A stretch of 44,851 nucleotides of DNA from a virus (lineage: Duplodnaviria; Heunggongvirae; Uroviricota; Caudoviricetes). The notes under the pieces are model-generated. The model searched no databases, was not told the DNA's origin, and saw only the letters and a program-made list of their open reading frames with translations. Positions 20,179-26,160 of the stretch are shown here, one piece after another. Every line of letters starts with the position of its first letter. Positions within the stretch are counted from its first letter, which is position 1. The stretch is from IMG/VR virus record IMGVR_UViG_2974654489_000001, positions 1 through 44,851 of that record; one strand, given 5' to 3'. A program made the translations under genes and the position numbers.

Positions 20179-20540
20179 GTATCACTGCCTATACTGGCCT
20201 CCCTTATGACTTCCGTCGTTACAATTGTTGGCATCACGTGCGCAGGGTGCGCGGTGATGTTGGGCTATCTACGCCAGCTTTCGATGTAACCTCCCCGACG
20301 GCTATAGACGCGGCGTTTGACGCAGGCCACTCCAACCCTAAAGGTCTGGAACGCGCCGCCAGTCCGCAGAACTATGACGCTGTGTTGCTTGGCAGCTACC
20401 ACAGAGGACGTGTAGTGTGGCACGCAGGCGTGTATTATGACGGTATGGTAAGCCACTGTGAGTTAGCGTCCAGACAAGTTCGCCTCGACCGCCTGGACGA
20501 TTTACGCGACACATATCAGGAGATTGAATTTTGGCGATAG
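20175..20540 (+). CDS. Putative tail assembly protein with Cys/His peptidase-like motifs
   Basis: 121 aa from ATG 20175 (ATGA overlap); YNCWHHV ... GMVSHCE resembles NlpC/P60-type tail assembly proteins; weak. Confidence 0.4.
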   Translation: MSITAYTGLPYDFRRYNCWHHVRRVRGDVGLSTPAFDVTSPTAIDAAFDAGHSNPKGLERAASPQNYDAVLLGSYHRGRVVWHAGVYYDGMVSHCELASRQVRLDRLDDLRDTYQEIEFWR

Positions 20541-23080
20541 TTATCCACTACACCCGCAACGAAGACGGGACGTTCACACAAAAACGGCATAACGACTCGC
20601 CGCTGAATTTCGTCGTAAACCATATCCCTGATGGTGTGCCGTTTCGCGTTTTCCTCGAAGAGATAGGAGAGGATAACGACGTAACAGAAAATTTCGACGC
20701 GTTAAAACAGGATGCCGTTTTCCACATCCTCGAGGGCGCTGGTGGCGGTGCTATCAAGGGTGTGATGAAAGTGTTCAGCATAATCCTTAAACCGCTGGCT
20801 AAATTACTCACACCCTCAACAAAGGGCGCGTCTAACAATCTCGCTAACCAGCAAGCAGACTCTCCGAACAACAGCCTGACAGACCGGAATAACAAGGCCC
20901 GCCCATACGAGCGAACTTATGACATCTGCGGCCGGGTGCAGACGATACCTAATAACCTTATGACCACCTATAAGGTTTTCGATAATACAGGCCGTATCAT
21001 CGAGTACGGCTACTATGACGCTGGGCGCGGGCATCTCGACGTTAAAGCAGAAGACATCACTGACGGCGACACCAAAGTCCAGGAGATAACCGGAACTTCT
21101 GTCGCCGTGTATGCCCCGTACACATCCCCCAATAACACAAGCTCCCCACAACTTCTTGTCGGCGAACCTATCGACCAAAAGTTGTATATCACTATTGCAT
21201 CTAATGAAGTAGACGGTGCGGTACTGAAAGCTCAAAACGGCATCAGGGTTAACCCCAGCGATACCGGTGAGATTTCATTACAAGGAACAACTGGTGTAGT
21301 TCGGGATGCCACCGGCGACTCCGCTTTCTCTGAGATTCTATCAGTGGGAGACATAGCTATTTTTAACGTTATTCAGGTAAAAGACGTAGCTAACGTAAGC
21401 GGTAACTATACTGTTACCTACGTGGACGACTTTGAGGTGAGAGTAGCCGTCGGAGGGATGTTATCAGAATGGCAGAAATTGCCGTCTGGGTTTACACGTT
21501 TAACACAAGGGACCGACGTATGGATTTCACCATCTAACACCTACGATAAGTCGTTAACAGACTGGACGACGCTTAGCAGACTGCCAGTAGAGCGCATCGT
21601 CGCAAATATCGCCGCCGCTAACGGCATGTATAGAGACAATGGCAGTAAACTAAGGGCCTCTGTCACCGTCGAATTGCAGTACCAGTTACTCGATGACACA
21701 GGAGCGCCCTACGGTCCTGTATACAGTAAACAAGGAACTATATCTGGGCGGTCATCGGATTATACCGGTGTGACAATCTACGCGGACCTGCCGTCGGCGT
21801 CTAATGTTCGTGTACGGGCACGCAGGGTGACAAACCTGGACCTTGATTTTGAGGGTACAGTAGTTGATGAAGTGGCCTATATAAATCTTTACGGGCAATT
21901 AGTTGACCGAACCCCACACTACGGCAACCGTACAACGGTGCATTCTGCGCGTAAGCAGACACCACGGGCCGCAGAGGTTAAACAGCCCCAACTGCGAATG
22001 GTAGTAACTGAGACGGTGTACAAGTACCTAGGCAATGGCGTGTTTGACACAGTTCGCACGCCAAACACGCAAGCGGTACAGTCGCTGATTCGTCTTGCCC
22101 GGGACCCGGAAGTTGGCGCGCTGAACCTGACAACGGCAAACATGGATAGACTGCTGGCCGTGCAGAACGAAATTGAAGGTTATTTCGGGAATGTCGAGGC
22201 GGGGCAATTCTGCTACACATTCGATGACTATAAAACTACTATGCAGGACATAGTAACTACGATAGCGGAAGCAATTTTCTGCACTCCATATCGGAGAGGT
22301 GCCGACATCCTTCTTGACTTTGAACGCCCGCGGATTGGCCCTGAGATGGTATTCACACACCGTAGTAAAACAACAGCTTCAGAAAAGTGGACCAGGACCT
22401 TCAATGACGCCCAGGTATACGACAGTCTCAAGTTCTCTTACATCGACCCTGATACCAATGTGAAAGAGACTATTAGCATTCCAGCCGAAGGTGGTGTTAA
22501 CACTGAAACGTATGACTCTAAAGGTATCCGTAATTATCGACAGGCGTACTGGGCCGCGTACCGCCGTTACCAGAAAAACCTGTTGAAAAAAGTCACGGTG
22601 TCCTTCACCGCTACAGAAGAAGGGATTTTTGCAATGCCTGGGCGTGCGGTAAGTGTGGTGAAAGGTTCTCGCATGGCTCCCCAGGATGGCTATATAATCG
22701 CTGTTAACGGGCTTACGCTTACTCTTTCTCAGCCAGTTACATTTACCCCCGGTGACGACCATTCACTCATCCTTAAGAAGCGTGATGGCGGAGTTCAGAG
22801 TGTTGCAGTTGTGCCGGGAAGTCACGACCGTGAAGTGATTATGTTATCTGCGCCTCAAGAAGCGATTTACACGGGGAATAGCGCACTAAAAACTGAGTTT
22901 TCATTCGGCAACGAAGCAAGGCATAATGCTCAGATGATTCTTGTTTCTACAGTTGACCCCGGGGATGACAGAACAGTTAAGATTACCGGGATTAACTACG
23001 AAGCGGATTTCTATAAATACGACGGCGTCGCGCCTTTCGGCAGCGGTTTCTCCGACGGATTCAGCAACGGTTTTAGTTAA
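20531..23080 (+). CDS. Tail tip / central fibre protein (J-like)
   Basis: 849 aa large tail protein after the distal tail genes; TTG start after AGGAGA RBS; positional. Confidence 0.5.
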   Translation: MAIVIHYTRNEDGTFTQKRHNDSPLNFVVNHIPDGVPFRVFLEEIGEDNDVTENFDALKQDAVFHILEGAGGGAIKGVMKVFSIILKPLAKLLTPSTKGASNNLANQQADSPNNSLTDRNNKARPYERTYDICGRVQTIPNNLMTTYKVFDNTGRIIEYGYYDAGRGHLDVKAEDITDGDTKVQEITGTSVAVYAPYTSPNNTSSPQLLVGEPIDQKLYITIASNEVDGAVLKAQNGIRVNPSDTGEISLQGTTGVVRDATGDSAFSEILSVGDIAIFNVIQVKDVANVSGNYTVTYVDDFEVRVAVGGMLSEWQKLPSGFTRLTQGTDVWISPSNTYDKSLTDWTTLSRLPVERIVANIAAANGMYRDNGSKLRASVTVELQYQLLDDTGAPYGPVYSKQGTISGRSSDYTGVTIYADLPSASNVRVRARRVTNLDLDFEGTVVDEVAYINLYGQLVDRTPHYGNRTTVHSARKQTPRAAEVKQPQLRMVVTETVYKYLGNGVFDTVRTPNTQAVQSLIRLARDPEVGALNLTTANMDRLLAVQNEIEGYFGNVEAGQFCYTFDDYKTTMQDIVTTIAEAIFCTPYRRGADILLDFERPRIGPEMVFTHRSKTTASEKWTRTFNDAQVYDSLKFSYIDPDTNVKETISIPAEGGVNTETYDSKGIRNYRQAYWAAYRRYQKNLLKKVTVSFTATEEGIFAMPGRAVSVVKGSRMAPQDGYIIAVNGLTLTLSQPVTFTPGDDHSLILKKRDGGVQSVAVVPGSHDREVIMLSAPQEAIYTGNSALKTEFSFGNEARHNAQMILVSTVDPGDDRTVKITGINYEADFYKYDGVAPFGSGFSDGFSNGFS

Positions 23081-23092
23081 AGAGGACTCTAT

Positions 23093-25468
23093 ATGTCAAT
23101 CGGATGTGGTGACGTTTTAAGCCTGGTGGATTTGCAAACCGCCAAGAAGCACCAGATTTTCGAAGCCGAGGTTATCACCGGAAAATCCGGTGGTGCTGCA
23201 GGTGGTGCGGATATCGATTACGCGACAAACGCCGTTACGGGGCAGACACAGAAGACGTTACCCGCTGTGTTGCGTGATATGGGCTTCTCCCCCGCATCAT
23301 TTGATTTTACTACAGGAGGTACAGTTACGCAGCGCGACACAGTGGTGTATAACCCCGCTGACAATAACTGGTACTCCTGGTCTGGAACGCTGCCGCGGGT
23401 TGTAGCCGCAGGGACTGACCCCACTACAGACAGTAACTGGAAACCTCGCACAGACCAGTTATTACGGCAAGAATTGGCGTCGGAACAAGCTGGTGTTTCC
23501 GGGGGGACATTGGTCCGTGTAGAGCCTGGAGTGGCTCCTGTGGTATGGGGTGAAAGGTCAGTAAAGAATTTGATATTAGATGGCAAAGCTGGGTTACGTA
23601 AAAACTTTGGCGCACTTGGGGACGGGGGTGCGACTGATGGCGGAGAGAAAGACACCAAAGCGATAGAAGACGCTCATCACGCCATGATGGATGTTCTTTA
23701 TCGCCGCCGCCCGGCTGAGACGGATGAAAGCACAATCAGTTTTATGCTACAAAAAGGCCCAGGCATTCTCTATGAGAATGGTGTGTATAAATATAACGGC
23801 ACCGGTTTAAATATATCGGCAGGGGATACCTTTATTTTAAATGTCAGGGGCGAAAGCGCTTTGGGAACTAAAATACTGTTGCCGGATGGTGTATATCTTT
23901 TCGATTTTGATAACAACCCCGTATACTCTCATTTATCAAACATGACAATTCATGGTGGTCTTGGTGCGGTTAGGTATAAGGCAAAAACGCGAATCACTGG
24001 TGATTTTCACGTATTTAGCGACCTTCGGCTTTCTCGTTTTACCGAGTGCGGAATTAGTAATAATGCAATTGATATGCCTTGCTTTCGGGTGGAGCGTAGT
24101 CGGTTCTACGGTGCTACCGCGTCTCAGCCAATCGGCGTATGCGTCAGCGGTCTTTCAGCCGGTGGGTACATTCGGGATTGCCTTTTTAGCGATTTCAGGT
24201 ACGCCATTAAGTTAGCTGTCGGGGATAACGGTACAGAACGCAACGGCCCCGCCACTCCGTTCAACATCGAAGACAACGACTTCTACCGCACAGGCGCACG
24301 CAGCCCTTCAGCATCTTATGATGTGTGGATCGAGCCTGGGGCAACCACTAACAACGCAGGTCGCGCCATCCGGTTTGCGGGTAATAAGTTCGGGCAAGAA
24401 AACCTGATTACACCCGATGCACATGTGCTCATTGCTGATAGCACTACCGGCAGCGGATTAAACTTAAACGGGGACCGGGCGCATGTCGAAACGCAATCCA
24501 CGGGTTTCGTATCGGGATTGAGATTTGAAGGTAATAACGTTAACTCCAGTAATGCGGGGTATATTGCACCGTTCTTGAGAAGTTTTACACCTAATCTAGG
24601 AAACTGCTATTTTTCTGATATTTATGACAACGATATGCCGTCGCGCATTATTGAGTTTGCAGGCGGGATTACGCAATCACAGGTAACGAATCTTACCCGT
24701 AGTAATGTGTTTAATGCAGGGCAATGCCTGGCATTACAGGAAGGCGGGGAGCCTAAACTCCTTAGCAATTTAAATGGCGTCTTTGGTATCGAAGACCCAT
24801 TGCATTACTATTCTGGGCATCCTCAGTCAACATATTATCCAGTTGGTACTGCTAAGATAGATTTTGTATCACTGTTTTCTGCGGAAACTTCAACGCTAAC
24901 GGTCGCTGACGGCAGTAAAACCGCTGTTCCTTGTTCGTATGGCGCACCTTCCGAAGCAGTGGAGATTACTATGTCTGCGTCAACGGGGCGGTTAATTCAA
25001 ACAGTATCAGGTCTTATCGCCAATAGAAAGGCTTGGTTGGATGTTGAGGTTAAGCGCGGGTCGGCAAATTCAGTGCAAAGCGTAAAAATAGAAATATTAG
25101 ATTCTACAGGCTCGATTATATGGCTTCGTAGAATAATTTTGCTCGACTCCCTGTCAAGGTGGCAAAAAGTAACACTACCGTTTGTGCCATCGGCAGCAGG
25201 TAATTGTATAGTTAGATTCAGCGCAGCAGCTACGTACTCCGCTGGTTCTTCCACTAATTTCATAGTTGGTAATCTTAATGTGTATCATAACGATACGCCT
25301 ATTTCTACAGGACTTAATAGTGGACTAAGTTCTAACTGGGCACGGCAGCACAATATCATGGGTACTATGCACGAATGGTATGATGCTTCTGGTAATAAGA
25401 GAGCTAAGTCAGGTCAACCTCTATCCGATACGGATGGGGTTATAATTAGCGCAAACGTGACACCGTAA
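23093..25468 (+). CDS. Tailspike / receptor-binding protein with beta-helix (pectate-lyase-like) domain
   Basis: 791 aa; FGALGDGGATDG...DTKAIEDA motif typical of right-handed beta-helix depolymerases; last tail gene; AT-rich C-terminal third. Confidence 0.6.
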   Translation: MSIGCGDVLSLVDLQTAKKHQIFEAEVITGKSGGAAGGADIDYATNAVTGQTQKTLPAVLRDMGFSPASFDFTTGGTVTQRDTVVYNPADNNWYSWSGTLPRVVAAGTDPTTDSNWKPRTDQLLRQELASEQAGVSGGTLVRVEPGVAPVVWGERSVKNLILDGKAGLRKNFGALGDGGATDGGEKDTKAIEDAHHAMMDVLYRRRPAETDESTISFMLQKGPGILYENGVYKYNGTGLNISAGDTFILNVRGESALGTKILLPDGVYLFDFDNNPVYSHLSNMTIHGGLGAVRYKAKTRITGDFHVFSDLRLSRFTECGISNNAIDMPCFRVERSRFYGATASQPIGVCVSGLSAGGYIRDCLFSDFRYAIKLAVGDNGTERNGPATPFNIEDNDFYRTGARSPSASYDVWIEPGATTNNAGRAIRFAGNKFGQENLITPDAHVLIADSTTGSGLNLNGDRAHVETQSTGFVSGLRFEGNNVNSSNAGYIAPFLRSFTPNLGNCYFSDIYDNDMPSRIIEFAGGITQSQVTNLTRSNVFNAGQCLALQEGGEPKLLSNLNGVFGIEDPLHYYSGHPQSTYYPVGTAKIDFVSLFSAETSTLTVADGSKTAVPCSYGAPSEAVEITMSASTGRLIQTVSGLIANRKAWLDVEVKRGSANSVQSVKIEILDSTGSIIWLRRIILLDSLSRWQKVTLPFVPSAAGNCIVRFSAAATYSAGSSTNFIVGNLNVYHNDTPISTGLNSGLSSNWARQHNIMGTMHEWYDASGNKRAKSGQPLSDTDGVIISANVTP

Positions 25469-25485
25469 GGTGGGTTAAATAAAAC

Positions 25486-25511
25486 TAAGGCCCCGTTCGG
25501 GGCCTTTTCTC
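25486..25511. terminator. Bidirectional intrinsic terminator (AAGGCCCC-GTTC-GGGGCCTT)
   Basis: GC stem, A tract upstream, T tract downstream, between convergent operons. Confidence 0.7.
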
Positions 25512-25648
25512 TACTCTTCTGGTAGCTTCTCCAGCACAAACGCCAGTTGCGCATTAGCGGCATCTCTCTGTTGTCGTAGTCGTAGAACCTCCTCTTCGAG
25601 TTCCTTGATACGTTTTTGTAATGCCGGAATGGGGGCTATGATGTTCAT
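25511..25648 (-). CDS. Small coiled-coil protein (45 aa)
   Basis: ATGA overlap with upstream gene, GAGGA RBS; below ORF track cutoff. Confidence 0.35.
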   Translation of the reverse strand: MNIIAPIPALQKRIKELEEEVLRLRQQRDAANAQLAFVLEKLPEE

Positions 25649-26160
25649 CTGGTAAATTTCCTCGCAAGATACGTTATTTCTTCTTCACAAAGTTCATCAA
25701 GGTCGTTAGATACAAATCCTCTGGTGAATGTTTTGCTGAACTTTAATCCAGCTTTATCATTGTCGCCCGCGCACACCCAGTCATATGGCAAAAGTGACAT
25801 TTGCTGCCGTAGGTCGGTTGATAAATTCGACCCCAGTGCGCTTACGGCATTGAACCCGCAATTCATCAAGGCTACGGCTTTGAATATGCTTTCGGTAACA
25901 AATACCACCCCGCGCTCCGGCAAATACTCAAGCCCCCATAAACACGGCCTTGTTGTTCGGGTAAAGTACCTCGCGTCTTTAGGGTTTTTACAGTTCTTTT
26001 CCGCATGTGGTTTGTAGTGCTGGTATCCGCGAAGCCTACCGTCAAACCCCCACAGGTAAAACGTAGCTACTCCAGAGCCTAAGACTACACGTAAACGGTC
26101 CGCGTCAAAACCTCGTGACAGCAGATGCGCCTTAAGTAGTAACTCCTCGCAATCCATCAT
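25645..26160 (-). CDS. Toprim-domain protein
   Basis: VVFVTES (Toprim Glu) and CAGDNDKAG (DxD) motifs. Confidence 0.55.
   Translation of the reverse strand: MMDCEELLLKAHLLSRGFDADRLRVVLGSGVATFYLWGFDGRLRGYQHYKPHAEKNCKNPKDARYFTRTTRPCLWGLEYLPERGVVFVTESIFKAVALMNCGFNAVSALGSNLSTDLRQQMSLLPYDWVCAGDNDKAGLKFSKTFTRGFVSNDLDELCEEEITYLARKFTR

Follow-up and report, generated by a model that had tools for sequence, protein, structure and literature searches.

The tailspikes of Kagunavirus phages are placed after a J-like fibre and are glycan-dependent (PMC11990801). Genus-conserved anchors joined to horizontally exchanged receptor-binding domains, with a cut-off at about 150 aa, have been described as the rule for such phages (PMC10408124). 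The only Raoultella-host Kagunavirus listed is Raoultella phage RP180 (PMC12919940). The window analysed here (44,851 nt; IMG/VR record IMGVR_UViG_2974654489_000001) is that phage; the product of its 791-aa ORF matches the tail spike protein of RP180 at 100% identity, and a sequence-only reading that had called it a tailspike was right. A GpJ-like tail fibre ORF of 849 aa (20531-23080) lies directly upstream, while a terminator and then convergent replication genes follow. The same order of J-like fibre and tailspike occurs in phage 26, SZH-1 and the loci L013 and L020. With T runs on both strands, the hairpin AAGGCCCCGTTCGGGGCCTT between the convergent operons is a bidirectional terminator-like site. 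The features of the locus are collected in Table 1.

Table 1. Features of the RP180 tailspike locus; positions are those of the window, and a point in the strand column marks a feature assigned to neither strand.
Feature	Coordinates	Strand	Remarks
Tailspike gene	23093..25468	+	791 aa; closes the structural operon
Virion anchor, aa 1-62	23093..23278	+	Guernseyvirinae/Kagunavirus-specific; predicted helical, low confidence
Tail_spike_N (PF18668) beta domain, aa 63-126	23279..23470	+	Ends in the conserved hinge
Conserved hinge NWKPRTDQLLRQ, aa 115-126	23435-23470	+	End of the PF18668 domain
Low-confidence linker, aa 127-155	23471..23557	+	Holds the probable left junction of the exchanged cassette
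Probable exchange unit (whole receptor-binding body), aa 136-791	23498..25467	+	On two unrelated phage backbones
Right-handed parallel beta-helix, aa ~156-560	23558..24772	+	Predicted depolymerase/receptor-binding domain
Cap motif GALGDGGATDG, aa 173-183	23609-23641	+	Within the beta-helix
GC-rich island, a tract nearly identical to the LAPP1/P0003 allele	24115..24477	+	Third-position difference 0.10; 3' edge ~24469
AT-rich segment of the sequence-only reading	24600..25468	+	Last beta-helix coils, connector, CBM-like domain and C-terminal strands (model)
CBM-like beta-jelly-roll domain, aa ~590-735	24860..25297	+	
GC-rich hairpin, T runs on both strands	25487..25506	.	Between convergent operons

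The N-terminal end of the protein is that of a Kagunavirus spike. The anchor shares 75-90% aa identity with Kagunavirus tailspikes and only about 10-30% with homologs of the body, and the 75-90% identity to the Kagunavirus-type group spans aa 1 to ~125. Megablast matches to 119 Kagunavirus/Jerseyvirus-type records are likewise limited to nt 1 to 185-285 of the gene, and phrog_29731 matches at aa 1-113 (E=3.5e-47). Both anchor homology and locus position place the protein among the Kagunavirus/Guernseyvirinae tailspikes. The PF18668 domain, known from the N-terminus of TSP1/gp66, scored 28.3 bits, above the Pfam gathering cutoff of 25, over aa 70-111, and the region was modelled as a compact beta domain (aa 63-118; pLDDT 83-92) with 85% aa identity to the Kagunavirus-type proteins P0053 and P0059 and 72-78% to its counterpart in phage LAPP1. 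Within the linker, aa 132-155 are predicted to be disordered (pLDDT<50). This N-terminus recurs widely, with 1627 matches in a set of 5.8 billion proteins, most of them confined to its leading 16-24% of the query sequence; the proteins sharing it are 584-859 aa long among the matches listed.

What follows these N-terminal domains has another ancestry. The tailspike is very probably a two-part module joined at aa ~127-143 (nt ~23470-23520), in which the body forms one mobile receptor-binding cassette. In two other genomes, L018 and L019, the body is found as one uninterrupted blastn match each, covering 23498-25467 at 97.7% and 98.1% nt identity, respectively. On the left side, identity to P0133/P0134 climbs from 0.43 to 0.96 across 23417-23525, and Kagunavirus backbone homology stops at 23322 (phage 26), 23268 (SZH-1) or 23470 (L013); it comes back around the terminator-like hairpin, restarting at 25476, 25480 and 25489 in these same three phages. 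Since one block at about 98% identity sits on two backbones and the Kagunavirus homology has these edges, the exchanged unit would be the whole body, aa ~136-791. L018 is a 149-kb contig with multiple tailspikes, and L019 is a siphovirus of a different type.

The relatives of the body tell the same story. Different anchors occur on it, including PF09008 Head_binding, PF12571, Calx-beta with PF18668, and some with none detected; only the N-terminal ~135 aa has other relatives, the Kagunavirus tailspikes. Every full-length body homolog has both the beta-helix and the C-terminal parts, which share their nearest relatives and are always contiguous, both in the phage database and in the 5.8-billion-protein set. 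The beta-helix is not Kagunavirus-derived. Across 24400-24900, no 25-codon window falls outside 0.96-1.00 identity to RP180-type relatives, whether before or after 24600, and in a domain-wise search the centre and the C-terminus both matched one set of 14 phage records, at coordinates that adjoin each other. The sequence-only reading had itself named shared closest homologs as evidence against a swap, and the centre and the C-terminus do share theirs. The sequence-only reading had placed a host-range swap inside the tailspike at about 24600 (aa ~503). Its broader idea of a mosaic gene tied to host range holds, in that anchor and body differ in ancestry, but the junction moves to the hinge and linker.

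Relatives of the body were located in phages and prophages of Klebsiella, Raoultella and E. coli, and the cassette circulates whole among these unrelated elements. By megablast, none of 5,426 complete E. coli genomes matched the gene, which leaves no prophage source at >=85% identity among them, and an IMG/VR scan with the body yielded a single relative at 59% identity. In the mechanism we propose, the anchor and the PF18668 domain would attach the protein to the tip of the siphovirus tail, while recombination in the conserved hinge or linker may have brought the cassette into a Kagunavirus of the E. coli type. Acquisition of the cassette would then have given the phage its Raoultella host, and the cassette probably explains how a phage of this type can infect Raoultella. 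For RP180, a published phage, the host-range junction is relocated to the hinge/linker at aa ~127-143, and nt 23498-25467 can be regarded as a natural portable receptor-binding cassette, shared at ~98% identity by three backbones: Kagunavirus, the siphovirus of another type and the multi-tailspike phage of ~149 kb. Such a boundary is practical for host-range engineering. Otherwise, the case follows the textbook pattern by which receptor-binding proteins evolve in modules.

The cassette is predicted to consist of a pectin-lyase-fold beta-helix, a CBM-like jelly-roll domain and a short C-terminal beta region. In the AF2 monomer model, the beta-helix is mostly at pLDDT>=90 (aa ~225-560), and Foldseek matched the model to CBA120 TSP4/TSP3/TSP1, Depo32, K2-2 TSP, DpK2 and HK620 TSP (E 3e-12 to 1e-4), with a probability of 1.00 for CBA120 TSP3/4, Depo32, K2-2 TSP, DpK2, HK620 TSP and AlgE4. 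By prediction, the fold is a right-handed parallel beta-helix, which bears out the earlier suggestion of a pectate-lyase-like beta-helix in the centre, with GALGDGGATDG as its N-terminal cap. Pectin-lyase-fold enzymes in the PDB aligned with the family profile at this motif only (E 1e-4 to 0.03, profile positions 155-186), and the PDB profile search returned no solved sequence relative of the body past it. At the same place, the distant homolog P0050 matches PF12708 with 31.2 bits, over profile positions 1-27 only; in Pfam, the query itself matched neither PF12708 (Pect-lyase_RHGA_epim) nor a related family at E<=1, and neither Pfam nor PHROG holds a family over aa 136-791. The C-terminal domain adopts a beta-jelly-roll fold in the model; as aa 503-791 have no Pfam or PHROG match, it is best described as a CBM-like fold and not as a member of a curated CBM family. 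A surface polysaccharide of Raoultella/Klebsiella is most likely what the beta-helix binds and cleaves, and we infer depolymerase activity and trimer formation for the tailspike. Many Asp and Glu residues are conserved in the body family.

Base composition sets the cassette apart as well. Among the 28 ORFs that encode 150 aa or more, the tailspike gene has the lowest GC3 (0.44), the others lying at 0.46-0.65; the cassette has a GC of 0.467 and a GC3 of 0.42, and the anchor a GC3 of 0.54. The close alleles LAPP1 and P0003 have GC profiles that match that of RP180 (r=0.87-0.88), and four further loci were compared, three of which have a tailspike gene with a GC3 below that of neighbouring genes. 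A low-GC composition travels with the cassette, which is more AT-rich than the RP180 genome.

The sequence-only reading had seen a GC-rich gene with an AT-rich 3' end. The AT-rich end is real: 24600-25468 has a GC of 0.438 and a GC3 of 0.367 (window GC 0.503), stands at the 1.8th percentile among all 869-nt windows and within the lowest 1% of 289-codon windows from the 28 large ORFs, and each of the two AT-rich strings quoted from it has a single occurrence (25085-25110 and 25130-25147). The simple order of GC-rich then AT-rich does not hold, as 23693-24092 in the beta-helix is equally AT-rich (GC 0.426, GC3 0.383) and is followed by a GC-rich island at 24093-24599 (GC 0.522, GC3 0.530). By fixed windows, the gene is thus GC-rich, AT-rich, GC-rich and AT-rich in turn, with GC3 values of 0.51, 0.38, 0.53 and 0.37. 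Recursive segmentation at alpha 0.01 left the tailspike gene undivided, so this four-block description depends on the fixed-window values. As a single change point, GC3 is best divided at nt 24521, behind codon 476, with 0.49 before it and 0.36 beyond (p=0.005 by codon permutation), and the total-GC change point has p=0.023; the step lies some 80-130 nt upstream of the boundary first proposed at 24600. Promoter-like matches within the AT-rich part were dismissed, six having been found against 3.9 +/- 2.2 in the shuffled control.

How, then, did the internal step arise? On balance, we favour homologous recombination at an earlier time between alleles that had diverged within one tailspike family. 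It would have stitched together tracts of differing history and codon composition, and its scar at ~24470-24520 would predate the spread of the RP180-type allele to several backbones. This explanation complements that of the whole cassette and covers the internal step only. Third-position differences to LAPP1 are uneven from block to block, being 0.36-0.39 at 23513-24114, 0.10 at 24115-24477, 0.64 at 24478-24639, 0.36-0.48 at 24640-25179 and 0.17 at 25180-25465, and outside the tract at 24115..24477, the LAPP1/P0003 allele is ~15-29% divergent. A run of 128 identical nt occurs at 24167-24294 against a null maximum of 75, and the synonymous-site maximum chi-square against LAPP1 reaches 34.9 at nt 24469 (1/40 vs 26/40 differences), a value equalled in none of 2000 permutations (p<1/2000). 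The GC3 of RP180 drops exactly at this breakpoint, ~25 codons before that of LAPP1/P0003, and the pattern is common to all RP180-type alleles. Against this, LAPP1 and P0003 also turn AT-rich slightly further downstream, so the breakpoint would sharpen the step and not create it; the GC island is the most conserved stretch of the protein and rich in Gly/Ala/Arg/Pro codons; and no donor alleles of the tracts came to light. As judged from the alignments, the edge at ~24469 reads as an old recombination breakpoint between alleles. Together with the deeper incongruence described below, it is what is left of the sequence-only reading's idea, and neither amounts to a foreign-domain swap in RP180. With this breakpoint, the history of the cassette is not uniform; the breakpoint, the nearby step at 24521 and the discordant family trees count against the whole-cassette reading.

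A deeper layer of exchange is a more tentative proposal. The beta-helix of the RP180 lineage is closest to one group of the family, A (67% identity, NJ bootstrap 100/100), and its C-terminal region to another, B (63%, bootstrap 93/100), such that the topologies for the two parts conflict (bootstrap 100 vs 93) and cross over between residues 530 and 575. Dropping group B alone reconciles both the distance matrices and the trees, which makes group B the likelier recombinant and not the RP180 lineage; with NJ on p-distances, rate heterogeneity is the alternative. It is conceivable, though we consider it doubtful, that the beta-helix and the CBM-like domain can each be exchanged without the other, through a second-tier junction at aa ~530-575 (nt ~24680-24820). 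In that case, an ancient domain-level swap would lie behind the AT-rich 3' third, and such a swap could tune binding independently of catalysis.

An explanation without any transfer, in which the GC alternation follows from amino-acid composition and local constraint (Gly/Ala/Arg-rich coils against an Asn/Ser/Ile-rich sandwich), appears unlikely. GC at codon positions 1 and 2 does vary along the four segments (0.54, 0.45, 0.52 and 0.47), the island coincides with the highest conservation in the family, and it is mildly GC-rich in groups A and B also. Yet GC3, which is largely synonymous, swings wider than positions 1 and 2, and groups A and B encode the same domains with a different GC3 profile (r=0.01-0.22); the GC3 profiles thus argue against amino-acid composition as the sole cause. 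Finally, it is very improbable that 24600-25468, which encodes the final ~290 aa, was acquired on its own as a foreign receptor-binding domain and grafted to a resident N-terminus and beta-helix, as the low GC and GC3 there, the change point at 24521 (p=0.005) and the breakpoint at ~24469 against the LAPP1-type allele might suggest, since the centre and C-terminus match the same records contiguously, the nearest relatives are 96-100% identical on either side of 24600 within a single match over 23498-25467, LAPP1 aa identity is ~90% on both sides, a second and equally AT-rich stretch lies in the beta-helix, and the beta-helix is not Kagunavirus-derived either. The 3' third resembles a separate AT-rich block because the most conserved stretch of the cassette is a GC-rich island, and a compositional step within a tailspike gene need not mark a functional swap point.

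Among the closest known systems is gp18 of 'Acinetobacter phage LAPP1' (MN923124), which shares 85% nt and ~90% aa identity with the RP180 tailspike from aa ~70 to 791, and the same GC profile. It differs in its N-terminal anchor and in following a baseplate-J-like gene, and its nucleotide identity to RP180 is patchy (71-100%). A search for literature on LAPP1 found none. The gp18 cluster is annotated as a putative prophage endo-N-neuraminidase, and one WP_ record is assigned to Klebsiella pneumoniae. We rejected the endo-N-neuraminidase label, as Pfam gave no GH58 or Peptidase_S74 match for the query (E<=1) or for P0001 (E<=0.001); with a predicted fold of beta-helix and jelly-roll and neither of these families, the protein does not qualify as an endosialidase.

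The beta-helix depolymerase tailspikes of solved structure, namely CBA120 TSP4/TSP3/TSP1, Klebsiella Depo32, K2-2 TSP, DpK2 and HK620 TSP, share with RP180 a predicted architecture running from a PF18668-type N-terminus through the beta-helix to a C-terminal beta-sandwich, although sequence identity is just 9-15%. Non-catalytic jelly-roll CBMs (CBM4, CBM22, CBM6, and porphyran- and alginate-binding modules) resemble the C-terminal domain in fold, at 7-18% identity and with no Pfam CBM match. CBM-like domains in trimeric tailspikes may serve assembly and not sugar binding. Compared with other Kagunavirus/Guernseyvirinae spikes (the K1G/K1H endosialidases, those of O16-specific BASEL isolates and the O-antigen spikes of Jerseyvirus), RP180 has a homologous anchor, and its spike gene, like theirs, comes directly behind the J-like central fibre and closes the structural genes. 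Its body (aa 136-791) is unrelated to theirs and lacks the PF13884/endosialidase signature, and its host is Raoultella. Nevertheless, their rule of a conserved anchor with an exchangeable glycan-targeting body applies to RP180 as well.

The tailspike ORF (23093..25468, + strand) encodes a 791-aa product that matches, from end to end and at 100% identity, the tail spike protein (QBZ71284/YP_009821865) of Raoultella phage RP180 (NC_048181), which is listed as a Kagunavirus and is the sole listed Kagunavirus with a Raoultella host (PMC12919940). A gene for an 849-aa GpJ-like fibre lies upstream, and a hairpin terminator and then convergent replication genes follow, an order common to Kagunavirus relatives. 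A second variable spot adjoins the tailspike at 25648-26160, where a 171-aa ORF (- strand) encodes a short primase/Toprim-like protein (PF13155; phrog_849 positions 149-333 of 435). At the DNA level the stretch has no counterpart in the related phages 26 or SZH-1, which have small HNH or hypothetical genes there instead, and an ORF of 170-171 aa occupies the equivalent place in two Kagunavirus-type loci, L013 and L020.

Cluster mates of the tailspike protein occur on unrelated backbones, namely P0133 on a contig of 149 kb that carries several tailspike genes and P0134 in a siphovirus whose tape-measure gene differs and which has an ERF/SSB module. Each contig gave one blastn match to the window, at 23498-25467 (97.7% and 98.1%, respectively), and homology to Kagunavirus backbones ends at 23268, 23322 or 23470 and is back at 25476-25489. 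These single, uninterrupted matches and homology limits show that the mobile unit is aa ~136-791, exchanged as a single block. The left junction of this unit lies within the low-pLDDT linker (aa 132-155), directly after the conserved hinge NWKPRTDQLLRQ, and the right one is at the stop codon. Identity to Kagunavirus-type spikes is 0.75-0.90 until aa ~120 and down to 0.24 by aa 136, from which point identity to the group of Acinetobacter phage LAPP1 exceeds 0.8. By megablast, 119 Kagunavirus/Jerseyvirus-type records match only gene nt 1-185..285, and a single record (LAPP1) matches gene nt 253-2375, at 85%.

The sequence-only reading had placed a swap point at 24600 and taken the C-terminal third as separately acquired. 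When aa 137-502 and aa 503-791 were searched separately by tblastn, the domain-wise check proposed with that reading, both returned an identical set of 14 phage records, with the two matches directly adjoining (including Gamaleyavirus, Przondovirus, Vectrevirus, Ulipvirus and a 252-kb Klebsiella phage), and identity to P0133 and P0134 is 0.96-1.00 in every window spanning 24400-24900. Position 24600 thus falls inside the exchange unit, with the swap point at aa ~136 and not ~503, and the C-terminal third was not a separate acquisition in this phage; what survives is a mosaic gene linked to host range. In a set of 5.8 billion proteins, ~50 proteins, encoded by phages and prophages of Klebsiella, Raoultella and E. 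coli, cover the body, and every full-length body homolog has both the beta-helix and C-terminal parts. Their N-termini vary (PF09008 Head_binding, PF12571, Calx-beta+PF18668, or none detected), and most non-body matches among the 1627 at E<=1e-5 are confined to the N-terminal 16-24% of the query.

In the RP180-like metagenomic contig L020, the backbone is 80-95% identical and the sequence from 23273 through the body ~100%. The backbone and first ~180 nt of the tailspike (23093-23270) are 80-93% identical, and this step at 23273 suggests that a second junction, for exchange within Kagunavirus, lies at aa ~60, where the anchor helices end. Phages 26, SZH-1 and LF7074P1 begin to diverge there too. 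The P0133 contig carries several tailspike-like genes (2839-4992, 5001-7463, 12242-; NCTSP_N/TIM-barrel, PF18668, WcaM-like), which points to a branched multi-spike phage having one spike in common with RP180. The last ~56 aa (aa 736-791; 25298-25465) are 0.91-0.96 identical to every relative, even those 0.98-1.00 identical over aa 461-735, and the few differences from P0130, P0133 and P0134 concentrate in the final ~100-200 nt; these may reflect a small patch of recombination at the terminus or changes specific to RP180.

The AT-rich tail that prompted the earlier reading is real and modestly significant. The segment 24600-25468 is at the 1.8th percentile among 869-nt windows and in the lowest 1% among 289-codon coding windows, and the strings quoted from it lie at 25085-25110 and 25130-25147. 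The GC-rich/AT-rich alternation, however, occurs twice along the gene, and 23693-24092 is also AT-rich. The best single GC3 split comes after codon 476 (nt 24521; 0.49 versus 0.36, permutation p=0.005). GC3 for the whole gene (0.44) is the lowest among 28 large ORFs, with 0.54 in the anchor (23093-23470) versus 0.42 beyond, and tailspike GC3 is below that of neighbours in 3/4 other loci examined. Only close alleles share the GC profile (r=0.87-0.88); against groups A or B, subgroups of the body family, r is about 0.3 (GC3 r=0.01-0.22), so the profile is not dictated by protein alone.

Nucleotide identity to the LAPP1/P0003 allele is patchy, and the proteins are still ~95% identical across 24461-24570. 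In a chi-square test on third positions of conserved codons with 2000 permutations, the strongest breakpoint was nt 24469 (1/40 versus 26/40 differences, chi-square 34.9, 0/2000 permutations as high), and an identical run of 128 nt exceeded a null maximum of 75. The near-identical tract overlies the GC-rich island, and GC3 drops in RP180 ~25 codons before it does in LAPP1/P0003, exactly at this breakpoint. All RP180-type alleles have the pattern, and the recombination event is therefore older than that allele's recent spread.

Coordinates of features (window positions unless a locus or aa is given)
Feature	Position	Detail
Composition	23093-23692	GC 0.528, GC3 0.505
Composition	23693-24092	GC 0.426, GC3 0.383
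Composition	24093-24599	GC 0.522, GC3 0.530
Composition	24600-25468	GC 0.438, GC3 0.367
Composition	whole window	GC 0.503
Identity to LAPP1/P0003	24115-24440	92-100% nt
Identity to LAPP1/P0003	24461-24570	71-73% nt; third-position 0.33-0.35
Identity to LAPP1/P0003	24600-24860	84-89% nt
Identity to LAPP1/P0003	24890-25000	75% nt
Identity to LAPP1/P0003	25180-25360	92-96% nt
Hairpin terminator	25487-25506	3' of tailspike gene
~84-aa ORF	L001 8165-8419
~84-aa ORF	L002 2898-3149
~84-aa ORF	L004 8630-8884
~84-aa ORF	L005 8684-8938
~84-aa ORF	L012 ~4996-5238
~84-aa ORF	L015 ~2372-2623
Helices	aa 11-62	AF2, low confidence
Beta domain	aa 63-118	AF2; PF18668
Disordered linker	after beta domain	AF2
Long beta-helix	aa ~156-560	AF2
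Beta-sandwich	aa ~590-735	AF2
Terminal strands	C-terminal to beta-sandwich	AF2

At the family level, RP180 together with its close relatives joins group A in the beta-helix tree (aa 150-520; NJ bootstrap 100/100) and group B in the C-terminal tree (aa 555-791; 93/100), the affinity crossing over at aa 530-575. The matrices were reconciled once group B alone was left out. A recombinant group B is more parsimonious than a recombinant RP180 lineage, and rate effects are possible.

A conserved ~84-aa ORF begins 7-20 nt past the tailspike stop codon in 6/9 homolog loci (groups 0, A and B). It has no Pfam or PHROG match and does not follow the tailspike in TH49, Koku, YC1 or the window (25469-25650); L018 and L019, the loci of P0133 and P0134, have only a short remnant (ATG...TGA, ~7 codons, like the ORF's start). 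It may be an accessory gene, often travelling with the cassette yet dispensable. The host (Acinetobacter pittii) and product name ('endo-N-neuraminidase') recorded for LAPP1 (MN923124) look doubtful. Its 90% cluster mate P0001 (WP_205714895.1; 49,722-nt contig) is a Klebsiella pneumoniae RefSeq protein, the remaining relatives all come from Klebsiella, Raoultella or E. coli, and a sialidase domain was not detected. Phage vB_EcoM_SHAK7693 (OR594180) is filed as Autographiviridae/Kayfunavirus, and its synteny and tailspike anchor are those of Kagunavirus. In phage M01 (OR061069), the tailspike frame is broken after ~110 aa into separately annotated CDSs (the first two of 333 nt and 1314 nt), a pattern suggestive of a frameshift or an error in sequencing.

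The AF2 model of the tailspike has a pLDDT of 82.4, and the motif GALGDGGATDG, noted earlier as pectate-lyase-like, lies at aa 173-183. For the body family, neither Pfam nor PHROG nor the solved structures contain a relative. The anchor would dock the trimer onto the tail tip, the beta-helix would bind and depolymerise a Raoultella/Klebsiella-type capsular or O-polysaccharide, and the CBM-like domain could provide extra binding or trimer stabilisation. Foldseek matched the model to CBA120 TSP4/3/1, Depo32, K2-2 TSP, DpK2 and HK620 TSP. The locus matches that described for Kagunavirus glycan-dependent spikes (PMC11990801), and the RP180 tailspike follows an established pattern in which the anchor is conserved within the genus and the RBD is exchanged horizontally (PMC10408124).
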